In this document: positions 8,717 to 63,030 of the stretch, piece after piece
Layout of the letters: every line of letters starts with the position of its first letter
How positions within the stretch are numbered: position 1 is the first letter of the stretch
NCBI RefSeq assembly: GCF_018350175.1
Contig: NC_058382.1
Coordinates: forward strand, 50,902,001-50,966,000
Direction: 5' to 3'
Origin: Felis catus
Lineage: Eukaryota
Length of the DNA stretch: 64,000 nucleotides
Translations under genes and position numbers: made by a program
Notes under the pieces: generated by a model
The model's input: the letters and a program-made list of their open reading frames with translations, nothing else
Told to the model about the DNA's origin: nothing
The model's database searches: none

Positions 8717-9446
8717 TTGTATGTGTGTTCATACATTTCAACAATCTGCTCCTTTCAGAGCTATGTTTAGAATATAGACACAAGCCATTACTATTTACTT
8801 TAAAAGTAGTATCTATTTATTGTCCCCTTTATCCATCATATTATGAACCACAAAAATTGAGGTGACTGTTTTTCTGAAAAGCGTATGACAAACATATACT
8901 ATTAAAAAACACGATTTCCTCTACCCAAACCTGAATAAGTACAAGAGAATGAGTATCAGAAAATAGAGGAAGAATAAAAACTTTGTCTTTGTTTATAAGC
9001 TACTCAGGAAAAAAAAAAAGAAGCTAAATGGTAAAGCCTCTTCTTAACTAACAGACCCCAATCTCATAGGTAACATTTTAAATGGTCTTTCTTATTTTAA
9101 GAACAAAATAAGCCGTTTCATCTTTTTTTTCCTAATTTCAAAATGCCCAGGGTTTCATTAGTTCTGTTTCTGGTGTTCTATTTCTGGAGCTGTGAGGAGA
9201 GCTATTTCACATCTTTAAGACGTGGTAGTGCAGAAATAACAGGATCTCCACACCCCAGATAATTTAAAATGGAAATCCGAGTGGCACTTCTGGGAGTGAT
9301 AAAGAGAAGCCATATGCACAGATATACTCTCTTGAGCCCCTGCAAACTTTTCTGACGTTTGAAAAGCACTGAAAGTAGAATTTTCTCTGGTAGAGCTATG
9401 CCAGTTTGACTCAATCTAATTTTATTCCAGAACAACCTACAGAAAA

Positions 9447-9485
9447 CCACACACACACACACACACGCACACATACACACGCACG
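9447..9485. repeat. (CA)n microsatellite
   Basis: Direct read. Confidence 0.92.
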
Positions 9486-9787
9486 TACGGGGGCGAATCT
9501 CTTAGATTCTGATAGCTCCTTGTAATTACGATGGGATGTCCATAAATTAACTACTTTATCTAAAAACTCACGTTTAATTTTAGATATACTACCATAGTCA
9601 GAGCCTAAGGGGAGATCTCACTGCTAACACTTGGGTTCCAGAATCCTTGTCAGCTACCACTGGCAGTCCCAGTAGGCTCGCCACGAAAGACAGAGGGGAC
9701 GGATGGCTAGAGAACCTCCTGAAGGTTGCTACTCTGAGGAAGGGGCAGCCTGAGTCACAGTTCAGCATTCCTTTCTATTTAAAAAGA

Positions 9788-9950
9788 TTTTTTTAATGCT
9801 TATTTATTTGAGAGAGAGAGAGAAGGAGGAGGAGGAGGAGGGGGAGAGAGAAAGGGAGACAGAATCTGAAGCAGGCTCCAGACTCTGAGCTGTCAGCACA
9901 GAGCCCGACATGGGGCTCAAACCCACGAACCACGAGATCATGACCTGAGT
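9788..9950 (-). mobile_element. CAN-SINE lacking its 5' ~40 nt
   Basis: Antisense body ends abruptly at ATCATGACCTGAG. Confidence 0.9.
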
Positions 9951-10259
9951 GCAAAGCGCTTTTCATCCCTTGCATAAAGCCCACAGCACCACTGGAGGAC
10001 CCACCTTGGGTACCTATTTCCCTGAGCTCGTCCTCCCAATGTCCTGGGCTCCCAGATCTCTTCATCTCCACACAGGGGCCTGAGCACCCAATGTGGCCCA
10101 TTCTCCTTGATCAAAACTCCAGCATGACCCCTCAAATGGATGTTCAATTCCCACATCATAAATCGTATGTTACAATTTGAAAAATCCCCATTTTGTATTT
10201 TTTCCCTTAAGTGTATTCACAGTTGCCACCTTGCTAATGTTTCTTAAAGGTAGGTTCTT

Positions 10260-10435
10260 GGGGCACCTGAGAGGCTCAGGCGGTTGAGCATCTGACTCTT
10301 GATTTCAGCTCAGGTCACGATCCCAGGGCCATGGGATTGAGCCCCGCATCAGATTGAAATTCTCTCTCTCCCTCTCTGCCCCTCCCCCACTCGTTCTCTT
10401 TCTCTCTCTCTCTCCTCTCTCAATTTTTTTTTTTA
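10260..10435 (+). mobile_element. CAN-SINE (older, shorter type)
   Basis: GGGGCACCTGAGAGGCTCAG..CTCTTGATTTCAGCTCAGGTCA; flanked by TTAAAGGT. Confidence 0.9.
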
Positions 10436-10770
10436 AAGGTGAGATTTTCATTCATCTATTCAATGTTATCCTCAGGATGTAGTACGGTATGTGACAATCA
10501 CTACTCAGTAAATATTACATTGAACAAATGAATTAAGTAATTTCTGAGTATTCAAATCAGCGAAAATACTGAGCGACCTGCCCCATGCGGAGGCCAGTAC
10601 GGTTCTCCAACCATGTAATGATGATGTCCTGAACCAACCTGACGAGATCTGGAATAAAAGGAAAGATTTGAGATATAGCTTTATTACTTCATGACTTCGT
10701 ATATACAGAGGGAAAGAAAGGGCTGCAAACAGAGACAGTATCACTCTGGGAGTTAAATACTGAGGGAACA

Positions 10771-10986
10771 GAGCATCTGGGTGACTCCGTCAGTGAAGTA
10801 TCTGACTCTTGATTTTGGCTCAGGCCATGATCTCACGGTCTGTGAGTTCAAGCCCCATGTGGGGCTCTGCACGGAGAGTTCAGAGCCTGCTTGGGGTTCT
10901 CTCTCTCCGCCCCTCCCTCGCTCACGTGCGCACACTCTCTCTCTCAAAAACAGCTAAATAAATTTAACGAAAATTAAAAAAATAAA
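10771..10986 (+). mobile_element. CAN-SINE
   Basis: 17 bp TSD TAAATA(C/T)TGAGGGAACA at 10754-10770 and 10987-11003. Confidence 0.93.
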
Positions 10987-12467
10987 TAAATATTGAGGGA
11001 ACAAAAGGAGGACAGGAAGAGTGTAGTAACTGAATAAAACCTGACACTAACTGAAACCACGTCACAGAGTTCTACCATTTTTGATGTAAATTACACACTG
11101 GTCCACTAAGAATGTACAATTTCTCACCGGATTTGCCCTGTGGGTTCACAAGCTCATGGAGGCTCAACTTTCAAAGATTTCCAGCTCCTTGCAAAGGGCA
11201 ATGAGGCAGGCAGAAAATCTCTGTGCAGCAAGATGAAGAGGAAACGTCATACGGAGATGTGTGTGGGGAAACCCTATGCCCACAGACACGGCAGGTTTGG
11301 AGGAAAACTCTGGCAAATGTGGTGATCCTACGTGACGGTCACTGGGAAACACACAAATGAAAGGATTCTTCTACAGGCTCTGGTGCAATCTCAGGGGCTC
11401 CATGTCCCACGACTGTGACACTACTGATCCATTTCACCTTCAGAGAAGTGAACCCATCAAGAGCACAACCCACCTTCCTCTAAGTGATACCGTACGCGTT
11501 CGTAAATATAGGTCAAATTGAACCCTTAAAGATAAAAGCATAAAGGGAAGAAAAGCTCCAGATATTTTATAGGCGGTGACTTCAGATCAGCCCCCCAGAT
11601 AATTCTGTGGAACGTGGGAGTTAAGAGTTCTTTTATCTCCTTCCTTCCTCCGGCTGGTTACATTTCTCAAAGGACACAGTAACATCCATCTCTAGCTTAT
11701 CTCTCACCTTATTTCCAGAGAAAAGGGAAAGTAGGTTAATGCTGAATTGGCTCAAGTTAGGGCCCCAAATATCATAGTTACTCTTCCTCAGAGTTTACTT
11801 TCCAAAGCAGCAGACTGTTGGGCAAGACTGATCTCCTTAAGTGGCTCTTATGTTTGGTCTTCAGTTATTTGCCCATGGAAACCTTAGATTGTGGAGAATC
11901 ATAATAGAGATCATGTATTTCAAAGAATTTCAAGTTTACCTTGGATGTTGATGACTAAACACCTGCCTATTTTTCGTAGAAGGACACATATTTTAAAACA
12001 CATCCCTACTCGCACTGCAAAAGCATATAAATAGATCAAAATGTCATAGGTTTACGTGATCTCAAATACAGAAAATGCTAGTTCAATATAATTATTCTGA
12101 TTGATAATTACAAGTTTTCAGGTAGACTCCAATACTTACTATCTGATTAAGGAAAACATGCCTGTTTTTGTGAAAGAGAAGGATATTTTCTGCTCCTGAA
12201 TTTTCGGACAAATTCACTGATGGAAGCCCTACAATTACCACATTTATGGTGCGTGCCATCAGGGAATGTGGTAGCACCCTTGATAAAGTGTGCCTGGGAA
12301 GGACAGACCCTTTAGTTCTCAAACTTGGGGTTGGTGGGGACTGGTTACATGACAATATTTCTTCATCACCATTCACACCCCATTTTCACCACGTAGGTAC
12401 AGTACAGAATGTACAAGAGCATATCAAGAAGAAAATTCAGTTCTGCGTAACTAAAAAAAAGTAGATA

Positions 12468-15711: not shown

Positions 15712-15879
15712 ACTGCTTTTCTAGTTTCAGTTTTCCCAGGCAAAGTGGGGACTTTAGAATGGGGAAATGAAGTCTCTTCCCTGGAATGTTGGGAAACTGT
15801 GTAAAGTGGTAGGTACACGAGTGTGGACTGTCCAGCAGCTCACACACGACGGGAGGTGAATAAATGTCAGGCTTCCTGC

Positions 15880-16040
15880 CCTGGGTCTGGGATACTGCAT
15901 CACTGGATCCAGTCATTCATCCCATGGGATCAGTAACACTGAGTCAACTAGGCCATTCATTTCCCTTCTCTGGACCTCAGCTTGTCCATCCGTATAATGA
16001 GGTCAGATCAGAGGTTTCCTAAAGTCCCTAGAGTTCTAAC
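15880..16040 (+). mobile_element. MIR fragment
   Basis: CTCTGGACCTCAG..ATCCGTATAATGAGG core. Confidence 0.6.
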
Positions 16041-16626
16041 ACCCTCTTCCCATCCTTGTTTCATGTTATTACTGACAGTGACTTCTTAAAATGATTGAGG
16101 TTTTACACAGTATGCGTAATTTTAGTTAAGAAGAAAAATATAAAGCCTAAATAAAGCTCTGAAAAAAATACTTAGAAACTGCTCTGATTGTGCTATTATC
16201 ACAAATTATGAAAGATATATTCTAGTATATCTCACCAATCTTCTGATCATTTTCATTAGAAACTATCTAGAGCTTATCAGAATGGTTCAGTGATTTTATC
16301 AAATAGCTAAAAATGATAGTGTGAGCACTCTTGAAAGTAGGACAGTTTAAGCAAATCACTCTAGCAACCTAAAAGAATCGTGCTAGTTTTGCCTAATTCA
16401 GAAAATAAAATTATTTAACAAATCGTTGTCAATTACCTAAGAACAGAAGAAAGAAAGGAAACAGACAGTTTCATGCAGCACATGAAAATTCAACAAGGGT
16501 CTCTCATAAACCCTGCAATTATTAGGCTAACACGTAAAACTGGCTTCCTGATGGACTGAAGCACTGTCATGAATAGTCATAGGTCAAGAAACCACAATCT
16601 TGGTTGTGCACACTGAAGACTAAAAT

Positions 16627-20024: not shown

Positions 20025-20205
20025 CATTATATACATATCATGTACATATATCAAGTATGTATGTGTGGGTGTGTATGTGTATATGTGTGTGTATACACAC
20101 ATAAATACATACATACTTGGTGTCTCGTAAGATTTATACATATACACATACATACATATACATACACAGATACACACACACACACCTACATACATATATA
20201 CTTCG
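20025..20205. repeat. Low-complexity (TA)/(TG)/(CA) tract
   Basis: Direct read. Confidence 0.9.
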
Positions 20206-23605: not shown

Positions 23606-23655
23606 TCAATTAGTATCTTTGACGATTTACTACTATATCTTGAAGACTTCAAAGT

Positions 23656-23657
<2 letters not shown>

Positions 23658-23696
<39 letters not shown>
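23658..23696. repeat. (CA)n microsatellite
   Basis: Direct read, ~19 units. Confidence 0.96.
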
Positions 23697-33094: not shown

Positions 33095-33500
33095 CTTTTT
33101 TTGGGGGTGGGGAGAGAGGGAGGGAGGGAGGGAGGGGGCCCAGAGAGAGAGATGGAGATACAGAATCGGAAACAGACTCCGGGCTCTGAGCTGTCAACAC
33201 AGAGCCTGACGTGGGGCTTGAACTCAGGAACCGTGAGATCATGACCTGAGCCGAAGTCAGAGGCTCAACCAACTGAGCCACCCAGGCGCCCTAGGAAATC
33301 TTTTTTTAAAAAAAATGTGTATTTATTTCGAGACAGGTGGGGGGGAGGGTCAGATAAAGGGGGACAGAGAGAATCCTTAGCAGGCTCAGTGCTGTCAGCA
33401 CAGAGCCCAACATGGGGCTTGATCCTACAAACTGCGAGATCACGACCTGAGCTGCAATCGAGAGTCAGGTGCTTAACCGCCTGCGTCACCCAGGGACCCC
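33095..33500 (-). mobile_element. Two tandem CAN-SINEs (33095-33291 sits in the tail of 33300-33500)
   Basis: Two antisense heads; the flank T(A/G)GAAATC recurs at each junction. Confidence 0.92.
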
Positions 33501-34830: not shown

Positions 34831-35052
34831 GGGGCGCCTGGGTGGCTCAGTCGGTTGAGTGTCCGACTTCGGCTCAGGTCATGATCTCGCAGTTCGTGAG
34901 TTCGAGCCCCGCGTCAGGCTTTGTGCTGACAGCTCAGAGCCTGGAGCCTGCTTCATATTCTGTGTCTCCCTCTCCCTCTGCCCCTTCCCCACTCATACTC
35001 TGCCTTTCTCTGTCCCTCAAAAATGAATAAATGTTAAAAAAAAATTTAAAAA
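34831..35052 (+). mobile_element. CAN-SINE (SINEC_Fc2-like)
   Basis: Full length; TSD CATATTTTGGAAGA. Confidence 0.94.
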
Positions 35053-49520: not shown

Positions 49521-50318
49521 AAGAATTCCATCTTAGGATCACAGAGTATTCCTAACTTCAGCATCCATCGGTCAATCTTGCCTACAACACAGATTGTTGA
49601 TTATTGTGACGACGGCATTTGCAACTTCTCTCTGAAGTAAAAAAAGAATATATATATAATATACTGCTTATGGGAAAACCAAGGTTCCCGTCTCTTTAGG
49701 ACTTCGTTGGCACATTACTAACAAAAATCGATTTCCTTCTGTGGAGGTAAGTTTTAACTTACCAGACAGATGGGCAGGCAGAGGGCAGTCGCGGTGGACA
49801 TAACAACCGTCGGACATGTTGGAAATGCTAGAAACGCTTTGCTCAGAGCAGGGACGGCAGACGCTGAGACAAGGCAGGTGAAAAACACCGTCTCCAGGGT
49901 GTCCCAGAGGGCAGTGCGGCAGCCACAGGTGGAGGCAAAAGTCATTTGACCAAACTCTAGAAGATTCAAGGGAGGCTGTTTCTTTCCTCCTGGCTCACCT
50001 GTGCCTTTACGACGAGATGGGGGGCATCTCTGCAGCCAACACGCAGCATGCGAAGGGGGGCTGGGCTGAAAAGCAGAGGACGGAGCAGAGACAGAGAAAG
50101 CATCAATGTCTCTGAAGAGGTCAGTGACGGGCTGACCAGTCAAACTGCAGGAAAACCACCCCCAGAGCAACTGTCATGTTGGAGAATCACCTGCTCACCA
50201 CCGCACTGGGCATTACAGTAAGGATAGGGTCTACCTGAGGCCAAAATCATCCTGACAAAGGAAGCCCAGCACAGCCTCAGTGAATGGAGTTTCAGAGAAG
50301 CAGCCCGGGGAACAGGTG

Positions 50319-50670
50319 TCACTTGAGCCCATCAGAGCTTAATAGAAGGTAATGGAAAACACACGCCGCAAGCCTGATTTATCGCAATCTCCCTAGAGGT
50401 GTATTTCACACTACTTCCAGCCTCAGAATATTACGAAACACCCTTTACAATTTCAGATGGAGCCTACGGCTCTATTTGCTTTATAGCCCACAAGATTCCA
50501 CAGACTTCACGTGATTATTGGCTCTACTTTCCTCATTGTTCGCTTCCTGCAACAACTAAAACTCCACTTCACATCTAATCACCATTTCGGGTTTGAAGCC
50601 GCTGCCTGGTGTTGACACTTCGTAGATGTCGTATGGCTCTTCTATGTCTCCATTTACTGATGAGGATCTT
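50319..50670 (+). pseudogene. COX3: COX3 3' half (NUMT pseudogene)
   Basis: Mitochondrial-code translation [73 protein letters not shown]; +1 frameshift near 50489; AGA at 50493 and 50502. Confidence 0.96.
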
Positions 50671-50739
50671 ACTCCTTTAGTATTAATCAGTACAGTTGAC
50701 TTCCAATCAACCAGTTTTGGTATAATCCAAAAAGGAATA
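50671..50739 (+). pseudogene. MT-TG: Mitochondrial tRNA-Gly(TCC) copy in the NUMT
   Basis: 69 nt between COX3 and ND3; anticodon arm GTTGA-CTTCCAA-TCAAC with TCC at 50702-50704. Confidence 0.93.
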
Positions 50740-51082
50740 ATAAATATCATTGAGCCCTACTTACTAACATGCTATTATCTACTCTACTCATGTTAATTGC
50801 ATTCTGATTACCCCAATTAAATATTTATGCAGAAAAAGCAAGTCCCTACGAATGCAGATTTGACCGACTAGGACTGGCCCGTCTACCTTTCTCCATAAAA
50901 GTTTACCTAGTCGCCATTGCATTCTTACTATGTGATCTAGAAATAGTACTAGTCCTGCCTCTACCCGGAGCTTCACATATAACCTACCAACTACACTCAC
51001 CATAGTACTACTATTAATTTCATTGTTGGCCGTAAGCCTAGCCTATGAATCAATCCAAAAAAGTACTAGAATGGACTGAAGA
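50740..51082 (+). pseudogene. ND3: ND3 (NUMT pseudogene)
   Basis: ATA start; [43 protein letters not shown], with several indels. Confidence 0.95.
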
Positions 51083-51152
51083 TGATAATTAGTTTAAGTC
51101 AAAAACCAATGATTTAGACTCATTAGATTATGGTTAATACTATAATTATCAA
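51083..51152 (+). pseudogene. MT-TR: Mitochondrial tRNA-Arg copy with mutated anticodon (TAG instead of TCG)
   Basis: Located between ND3 and ND4L; acceptor stem TGATAAT/ATTATCA; anticodon arm AATGA-TTTAGAC-TCATT. Confidence 0.9.
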
Positions 51153-51442
51153 ATGTCTATAGTGTATATTAGTATCTTCCTGGCCTTCATGATATCTCTA
51201 ATAGGATTGCTAATATATCGATCCCACCTAATATCATCCCTTCTATACTTAGTAGGGATGATATTATCTATATTTATCATAATAACCATAGTAATCTTAA
51301 CCACGTCACACTAGCCAGAATACCTATTATCCTACTAATATTTGCTGCCTGTGAAACAACACTGGGCCTGTCCCTCTTAGTAATAGTATCTAATACATAC
51401 AGCCCTTATTACGTACAAAACCTAAATCTCCGACAATGATAA
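51153..51442 (+). pseudogene. ND4L: ND4L (NUMT pseudogene)
   Basis: [71 protein letters not shown]; internal deletions; 7 bp overlap with ND4. Confidence 0.95.
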
Positions 51443-52003
51443 AAATCATTCCAAATGCAGGGCGCGTGGGTGGCTCAGGCGGTTGGGCGGCTGACTGGCT
51501 CAGATCATGATCTCGCAGTTCTTGAGTTCAAGACCCGCGTCGGGCTCTGTGCTGACAGCTGAGAGCCTGGAGTCTGCTTCGGATTCTGTGTCTCCTCCCT
51601 CTGCCCTGCCCCCATGCACACTCGCTCTCTCCCTCCCTATTTCTCTCAAAAACAAATAAACATTAAAAAACAGTTTTTTTAAATCATTCCAACAATAATA
51701 GTACTGCTAACATGCTGTCAAAACTCAACATAATTTGAATTAACTCAACAGCCTACAGCTTACTAATTACCCTCATTAGCCTCACCTACCTCAACCAATT
51801 CAAAAGTAACAGCCTTAGCTTCTCACTACTATTTTTCTCAGACTCACTCTCAGCACCCCTCCTGGCATTAACAGCACGGCTCCTCCCACTAACACTTACA
51901 GGCAGCCGATCGCACCTATCAAAAGGGACCCTGCCCCCCAAAAAACCTTTCTATCACAATACCCACTCTTCTGCAACTATTTCCAACCATAACCTTTACC
52001 ACT
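51436..52003 (+). pseudogene. ND4: ND4 5' fragment (NUMT pseudogene), SINE-interrupted
   Basis: ATG at 51436; after the SINE reads NMIWINSTAYSLLITLISLTYLNQF..FSLLFFSDSLSAPLL..SHLSK..; truncated at ACCTTTACCACT. Confidence 0.94.
51460..51680 (+). mobile_element. CAN-SINE (SINEC_Fc2-like) inserted in NUMT ND4
   Basis: TSD AAATCATTCCAA at 51443-51454 and 51681-51692. Confidence 0.94.
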
Positions 52004-52571
52004 GGCCGCTATCTGGTCCAGGCAGCTTAGATATCATCGGATCAAAATGTGTCCCACGTGCTTTCAATTACTGCAAGCTGGAGACAGAGTGAGCAAGAGA
52101 GGGGAGAAAGCTGCCATGTTTTGAGTGAGAATAAACGTATGATCGCCACAGGTGAACCCCGGCTAATAAAACGGAATTCTTCCTTCTCTAATTTTATAAA
52201 ACATTTATAACTACGCATGTATGAAACATGTTCCACTTAAGTTTAAAGGCTAGAACTTTCTTGGGTCCTCAGTGATGCAACACGAGGATTTACACGCTAG
52301 GAGTGGACGACATCACACAGCAGCTCTCCCGAGTTCCAGGACAGGGAAGAGTCTGCCCCCTCCCGTAATCATCTACCCTGCTGCAAATGCACCCCTTGTC
52401 CGAAGGGCACAGAGAGGAAGGGGAAGCTGGACCAAGCCGATCTGTGTGAACTAGTAAGTGAAAGTTTCTCCAGGTTCAGAGAAGTCGGCCAGGGGTCCTA
52501 TTTATTCCACAGTTCTTTCCTCCTTCTAGATCCTGAATGTTCATATATACACAGAAATGCACACATTGTAC

Positions 52572-62591: not shown

Positions 62592-63030
62592 AGGGGTGCC
62601 TGGGTGGCTCAGTCGGTTGAGTGTCTGACTTCGGCTCAGGTCATGATCTCACGGTTCATGGGTTCGAGCCCCGCGTCGAGCTCTGTGCTGAGAGCTTGGG
62701 GCCTGGAGCCTGCTTCAGATTCTGTGTGTGTCTCTCTCTCTGCTCCTCCCCTGCTCACACTCTGTCTCTCTCTCAACAATAAATAAAGATTAAAAACATT
62801 TTTTTTTGAAAAAAAAAATTATAGGGGTGCCTAGGTGGCTCAGGTGATTAAGCGCCAACTTCGGCTCAGGTCATGATCTCGCGGTTCGTGAGTTCGAGCC
62901 CCACCTCGAGCTCTGTGCTGACAGCTCAGAGGCTGGGGCCTGCTTCAGATTCTGTGTCTCCCTCTCTCTCTGCTCCTTCCCCACTTGTGCTCTTTCTGTG
63001 TCTCTCAAAAATAAACACTAAAATTTTTTT
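62592..63030 (+). mobile_element. Two tandem CAN-SINEs (62592-62818, 62824-63030)
   Basis: Both are preceded by AAAAATTATA(G). Confidence 0.93.

Follow-up and report, generated by a model that had tools for sequence, protein, structure and literature searches.

The DNA analysed here, a window of 64 kb (positions 50,902,001-50,966,000 of the 62-Mb chromosome-scale contig G000:C39), carries between 50319 and 52003 a copy of part of the mitochondrial genome. As reference mtDNA we used the 17,009-bp mitochondrial contig of the same genome (G000:C71, hereafter C71), whose ND3, COX3, ND4L and ND4 proteins are identical to Felis catus mitochondrial entries. By blastn, the homology to C71 is collinear, on the same strand and in two pieces, window 50319-51450 corresponding to C71 9929-11072 (900 of 1147 positions identical, 78%, E=0) and window 51708-52003 to C71 11098-11393 (224 of 298, 75%, E=1e-51). 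An earlier note, made from the letters alone, had described an mtDNA-derived segment in mitochondrial gene order with frameshifts and stops, and blastn, Pfam and Rfam bear it out: the end of COX3, tRNA-Gly, ND3, tRNA-Arg, ND4L and the start of ND4 follow one another (Table 1), and three of five stop-free pieces matched Pfam families, namely COX3, ND3 and ND4-N. The collinear mtDNA homology, the nuclear setting and the lost coding constraint identify the locus as a nuclear copy of mitochondrial DNA (NUMT). Rfam matches to CRISPR and snoRNA families in the window were discarded as chance (E 1.8 and 3.7).

Table 1. Features of the COX3-ND4 NUMT (positions in the window; identities to C71)
Feature	Position	Strand	Evidence	Lesions and remarks
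COX3 3' part, pseudogene	50319..50670	+	271/351 identical to C71 9929-10282; Pfam PF00510 E=3e-15	+1 frameshift and 3-bp deletion (one each); AGA stops at 50493, 50502
Mitochondrial tRNA-Gly copy	50671..50739	+	64/69 identical	anticodon TCC kept
ND3 pseudogene	50740..51082	+	266/342 identical; Pfam PF00507 E=4e-6	-1, -4 and +1 indels; AGA stop at 50856
Mitochondrial tRNA-Arg copy	51083..51152	+	60/69 identical; Rfam RF00005 33.9 bits	anticodon TCG to TAG; one extra base
ND4L pseudogene	51153..51442	+	232/290 identical	-4 and -3 deletions
ND4 start	51436..51454	+		left SINE target-site duplication (51443-51454) at its end
CanSINE inside the NUMT	51455..51680	+	12-bp duplication 51443-51454 / 51681-51692	
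Right duplication copy and ND4 pseudogene, to codon ~112	51681..52003	+	Pfam PF01059 E=5e-12	-1, -1 and +2 indels; end sharp

With three clear in-frame AGA stops, nine frame-breaking indels in its coding parts and an altered tRNA-Arg anticodon, the element is dead. It differs from C71 at 41.8% of third codon positions and 10.6% of second positions. At sites invariant in 10 functional mitogenomes, 26 of 260 first positions (10.0%) and 35 of 366 second positions (9.6%) have changed, 61 of 626 in total, evenly over both positions and along the length, and such even change is the pattern of neutral nuclear decay. This makes it the most decayed of nine overlapping NUMTs tested, the other eight ranging from 2/329 to 12/192. 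Selection on the tRNA-Gly copy was considered and rejected, its 5 changes in 69 bases matching the prediction of 7-10% neutral decay.

How did the segment enter the nuclear genome? Both ends are sharp and the flanks are non-mitochondrial. We found no target-site duplication at the ends, the longest word common to both junctions being 5 nt. The 5-6 kb to the left and to the right hold no additional mitochondrial pieces (all scores lay under the shuffle maxima); the earlier note had been right on both the missing duplication and the nuclear flanks. NUMTs are known to enter nuclear DNA by end-joining, and the lack of a target duplication would fit such an event at a broken chromosome of an early feliform.

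Searches of the genome returned 14 and 6 matches, the window and C71 included, and ten other NUMTs were projected on C71. Eight of the nuclear matches were used in IQ-TREE and three in the ladder model described below; shortness or high divergence kept out the remainder. For outgroup mtDNA we drew on a scan of metagenomes that yielded 22 loci. Exact ND3 look-up assigned nine of them, none feliform, to dog, Weddell seal, cattle, sheep, pig, dolphin, rabbit, buffalo and an ibex-type animal; 10 of the 22 entered IQ-TREE and 6 the custom model, and those left out comprised nine near-duplicate or incomplete copies, an overlap of 72 bases and two distant contigs that do not look mammalian. Mammalian mtDNA in viral contigs gave 0 hits. 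In the resulting DNA trees (IQ-TREE, 20 rows), which hold no feliform mitogenome from outside Felidae, the NUMT falls in one group (99.8/97) with the mtDNA of the cat and its other NUMTs, a group to which dog plus seal is sister, and plain IQ-TREE joins it with NUMTs C11 and C13 (95.8/74). We also fitted a custom model in which each NUMT leaves the mitochondrial tree and then undergoes nuclear decay equal at all codon positions. With CpG-prone sites removed, this placed NUMTs C16, C17, C47a and the present one on successive rungs of a ladder along the cat line. Their depths, as fractions of the distance back to crown Carnivora, are 0.08, 0.37, 0.57 and 0.68, and nuclear decay rises with depth (0.004, 0.030, 0.039 and 0.062, respectively). 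The ladder and a clade of this NUMT with C47a are about equal (RELL 2450 vs 2391 of 5000), and the bootstrap 95% range for the depth of this NUMT is 0.58-0.84 (62 replicates). Insertion before the cat/caniform split, outside Carnivora, was rejected, being 14 log-likelihood units worse (RELL 0.014).

In these trees, then, the NUMT lies with the cat (feliforms) rather than with the caniforms, and below Felidae; having branched off after the split from dog and seal, it would be the fossil of a feliform ancestor. The earlier description of an old fossil of an ancestral carnivore mitogenome thus stands as far as age is concerned, but the IQ-TREE grouping and the RELL value for an outside position point to a feliform rather than a general, pan-carnivore ancestor. 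With crown Carnivora dated at 46.7-52.7 Mya and crown Feliformia at 31-34 Mya (dates given in PMC7886153), the depth converts, under an assumed clock, to about 32-36 My (range 27-44), and on the same assumption insertion is likely to have taken place some 30-40 million years ago, near the base of the living feliforms. Taken together, we consider it very probable that a single COX3-ND4 piece of mtDNA, now dead, was end-joined into the genome of an early feliform around 30-40 Mya, and then decayed neutrally and gained a SINE.

The encoded residues tell much the same. Where feliforms differ from dog and seals, the ND3 of the NUMT has the feliform residues, and its ND4 keeps pre-felid (non-felid) states at 9, 14, 40, 67 and 105, positions at which nearly all of 11 felid proteins agree. 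Among the three residues that the earlier note had cited as ancestral, only the ND4 motif IPTMM holds, being common to two other old NUMTs and the seal. The COX3 proline, present in seal, bat and cattle and absent in dog, panda, a viverrid and NUMTs C17 and C47a, is a toggling site, and the ND4 phenylalanine (TTC), one transition away from the leucine codon CTC of C47a, may be a nuclear change.

Did the donor lie on the direct line to cat mtDNA? We favour a donor that would have been close to that line. An alternative, which we regard as unlikely, is that the donor mtDNA belonged to a lineage split by several million years from the cat's ancestral mtDNA, whether that of an extinct feliform or one left behind by a later replacement. 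A non-zero mitochondrial side branch was indeed preferred in every fit, with a length of 0.17 of that of the cat line (bootstrap median 0.175, 95% 0.001-0.45), although 5 of 62 bootstraps lacked it. The likelihood ratio was 15.5 and 13.2 with three partitions, 6.9 and 5.9 when four-fold and two-fold sites were split, and 7.7 and 4.7 when three more NUMTs were added, so a better model, and the breaking of the branch by other NUMTs, bring it down from 15.5 to 4.7. None of 57 null simulations reached the restricted observed value of 4.22 (maximum 4.15), but these simulations carry the faults and assumptions of the model itself. Private changes are more frequent at third (41/229) than at second positions (40/422), whereas no clear excess is seen among transversions (11/229 vs 25/799). 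The grouping with other old NUMTs in IQ-TREE would also fit a side branch; changes in common with other NUMTs lie mostly at CpG-type sites. Moreover, NUMT C47a gives a like signal in single-NUMT fits (10.1-12.7, then 2.7-4.7) that is mostly gone in the ladder, and ancestral polymorphism, saturation or missing feliform mitogenomes could yield the same signal. The synonymous excess is weak and model-dependent, and at most hints at a side-lineage donor.

The same test logic, a synonymous excess on the NUMT stem, has been applied to human ps5, a NUMT from a divergent mtDNA lineage (PMC9140377); there, unlike here, the stem was isolated by orthologues in three species and the result was highly significant. 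A literature search found no published ghost-lineage reading of cat NUMTs. Should the side-branch signal hold under full taxon sampling, the sequence would attest to a feliform mitochondrial lineage now extinct. In the fuller version, which we regard as likewise unlikely, the NUMT would hold mtDNA from an early feliform side lineage that died out and had been separate from the line leading to cat mtDNA for some 5-10 My; it would record hybridisation, or a replacement of mtDNA, among the cat's Oligocene ancestors, and the NUMT series would provide dated snapshots along the bare felid stem.

The NUMT is also independent of the other cat NUMTs. The distance of this NUMT to each of the others is 0.18-0.23, with the differences concentrated at third positions (0.34 at third vs 0.13 at second positions in the case of C47a). 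Because the third-position excess is found against every other NUMT, the donors must have diverged as working mtDNA, which makes these separate insertions; the earlier claim of an insertion distinct from the tandem Felis Numt and from the other overlapping NUMTs is thereby upheld. Both this element and the tandem Felis Numt are mtDNA in the cat nuclear genome, but the latter is a young, tandem 7.9-kb array on chr D2 that begins in the control region (bioRxiv 10.1101/2023.06.19.545568), whereas the present element is single, 1.4 kb long and 78% identical to C71. At otherwise invariant sites NUMTs have at most 5 changes in common, several of them in CpG-type contexts. Two observations would fit a secondary nuclear duplicate of another NUMT, a reading to which we give very little credence: this NUMT, C47a and C13 all have a deletion of 4 bp near mt 10590, and five private changes are common to C47a where about 1.4 were expected. 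However, the deletion lies within a tandem 4-mer and is absent in C11, C2 and C17, distances of 0.18-0.23 with a third-position excess are produced by mitochondrial evolution only, the SINEs of this NUMT and C47a have unlike target duplications, and the 14 and 6 matches include no second copy with common flanks and frameshifts, so that a duplicate origin is largely refuted. As for a recent NUMT or an assembly chimera, the identity of 78% and 75% to the animal's own mtDNA (near-identity would have been the mark of a recent NUMT), with a piece 22% away making a chimera very unlikely, the old SINE inside, the presence of the same element with a SINE-sized gap in a published cat assembly (PMC10764098), and the recovery at word level of 0.95-0.98 of the 31-mers sampled from 50000-52300, a stretch spanning both junctions, in 20 of the 24 runs listed (9 studies; 2 of these runs may be the source of this DNA) leave it next to no probability.

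The distance from living mtDNA also bears on the suggestion that the element might contaminate ND3/ND4L PCR or read mapping, a risk that turns out to be low. Its longest exact match to the cat's own mtDNA is 29 nt and its best 100-mer has 9 mismatches; 87 of 1268 20-mers lie within one mismatch of own mtDNA, and none of 1228 100-mers lies within 5 mismatches, compared with 384 of 569 for NUMT C1 and 338 of 865 for NUMT C16. These two NUMTs, 95.5% and 93.6% identical, respectively, span COX3-ND3 and are the realistic contaminants for COX3/ND3 work.

After insertion, the NUMT would have taken up the CanSINE, which sits with its 12-bp target duplication in the first ND4 codons. The SINE is 8.3% (non-CpG, 109 sites) from the local majority of the 43 SINE copies compared. 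It lacks the subfamily I motif, matches neither published 7-mer exactly and the subfamily II 7-mer only with a mismatch, and its A box has T rather than the G of IIB; the motif match being inexact, it is likely to belong to subfamily IIA, which arose about 35 Mya or later (PMC4084570). In C47a, another old NUMT, a CanSINE (L017:9669-9884, G000:C47 ~33.376 Mb) likewise sits at the ND4 start, the two mitochondrial positions lying no more than some 25 bases apart; as the target duplications differ, these are independent insertions at an A/T-rich target. In this window, three tRNA-Arg calls by ARAGORN (33202-33287, 34836-34920 and 62598-62683) are CanSINE heads, not tRNA genes.

The element is already catalogued as Fcat_numt224/225 by Uvizl et al. 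(PMC10764098, Table S3), whose numbering equals that of C71 minus 865 (9929-11072 becoming 9064-10207). Fcat_numt224 is listed as mt 9064-10207, COX3-ND3-ND4L-ND4, + strand, 79.1% and 1131 bp, and Fcat_numt225 as an ND4 piece, mt 10233-10500, after a 258-bp gap. The latter row ends 28 bases earlier than our second piece, and the two table rows come without age, tree position or description of the SINE. In the same catalogue the striped hyaena has a block, Hhya_numt256-258 (scaffold PEQU01000639.1, about 267.5-269.2 kb), that starts at mt 9066 (9064 in the cat), runs COX3-ND3-ND4L and then ND4, and is 71-77% identical to its own mtDNA, a divergence similar to that of the cat element. Unlike the cat NUMT it extends to 10904, which takes it some 400 bp deeper into ND4; it also has deletions inside, and where ND4 starts there is no gap the size of a SINE (PMC10764098). 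Judged from these table coordinates, the block is a candidate orthologue, although 9066 is the start of another hyaena NUMT as well, so that the common start may be an alignment edge. Orthology would fit the age proposed here and place the SINE later, that is, the SINE would have arrived after the cat/hyaena split; it would also imply that the right end of the cat NUMT, which may be a later deletion, is a deletion edge and not the original end.

Liu et al. (PMC12491944) describe cox1 NUMT clades from feliform and carnivoran ancestors, and their ancestral-Feliformia clade in cats is of like age, but consists of cox1 segments and not of COX3-ND4. Annotation of the cat genome listed 430 NUMT hits covering all mtDNA (PMC4138527), and eight dog NUMTs are reported as common to cat (PMC11507379). 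As one catalogued piece among 446 (PMC10764098, Table S2), the element itself is ordinary and matters little. It may serve as a presence/absence marker for early feliform branching, through the NUMT, then the SINE and then the possible right-end deletion, and it is one rung of a ladder of NUMTs sampling cat-line mtDNA where there are no living species.

Besides this element, the genome has at least nine further NUMTs over COX3-ND4, 77-96% identical (on G000:C17, C16, C1, C47, C13, C11 and C2; L019, L020, L021, L017/L018, L022-L024 and L030); their decay rises with depth, so that they form a series of snapshots. Probably older still are the NUMTs at L026:4270-5004 (G000:C39 ~61.379 Mb) and L027:1175-5103 (G000:C18), which show 65-72% identity and are split by later insertions, and a compound NUMT at L025:5090-6165 (G000:C47 ~30.619 Mb) joins COX3 (mt 9640-10088) and CYTB/control-region sequence (mt 15838-16401) placed 70 bp apart. 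Within the window itself, 20135-20201 and 23654-23695 weakly match the control-region repeat of C71 (E 4e-5 to 6e-3); simple purine-pyrimidine repeats, not NUMTs, are the most likely explanation.
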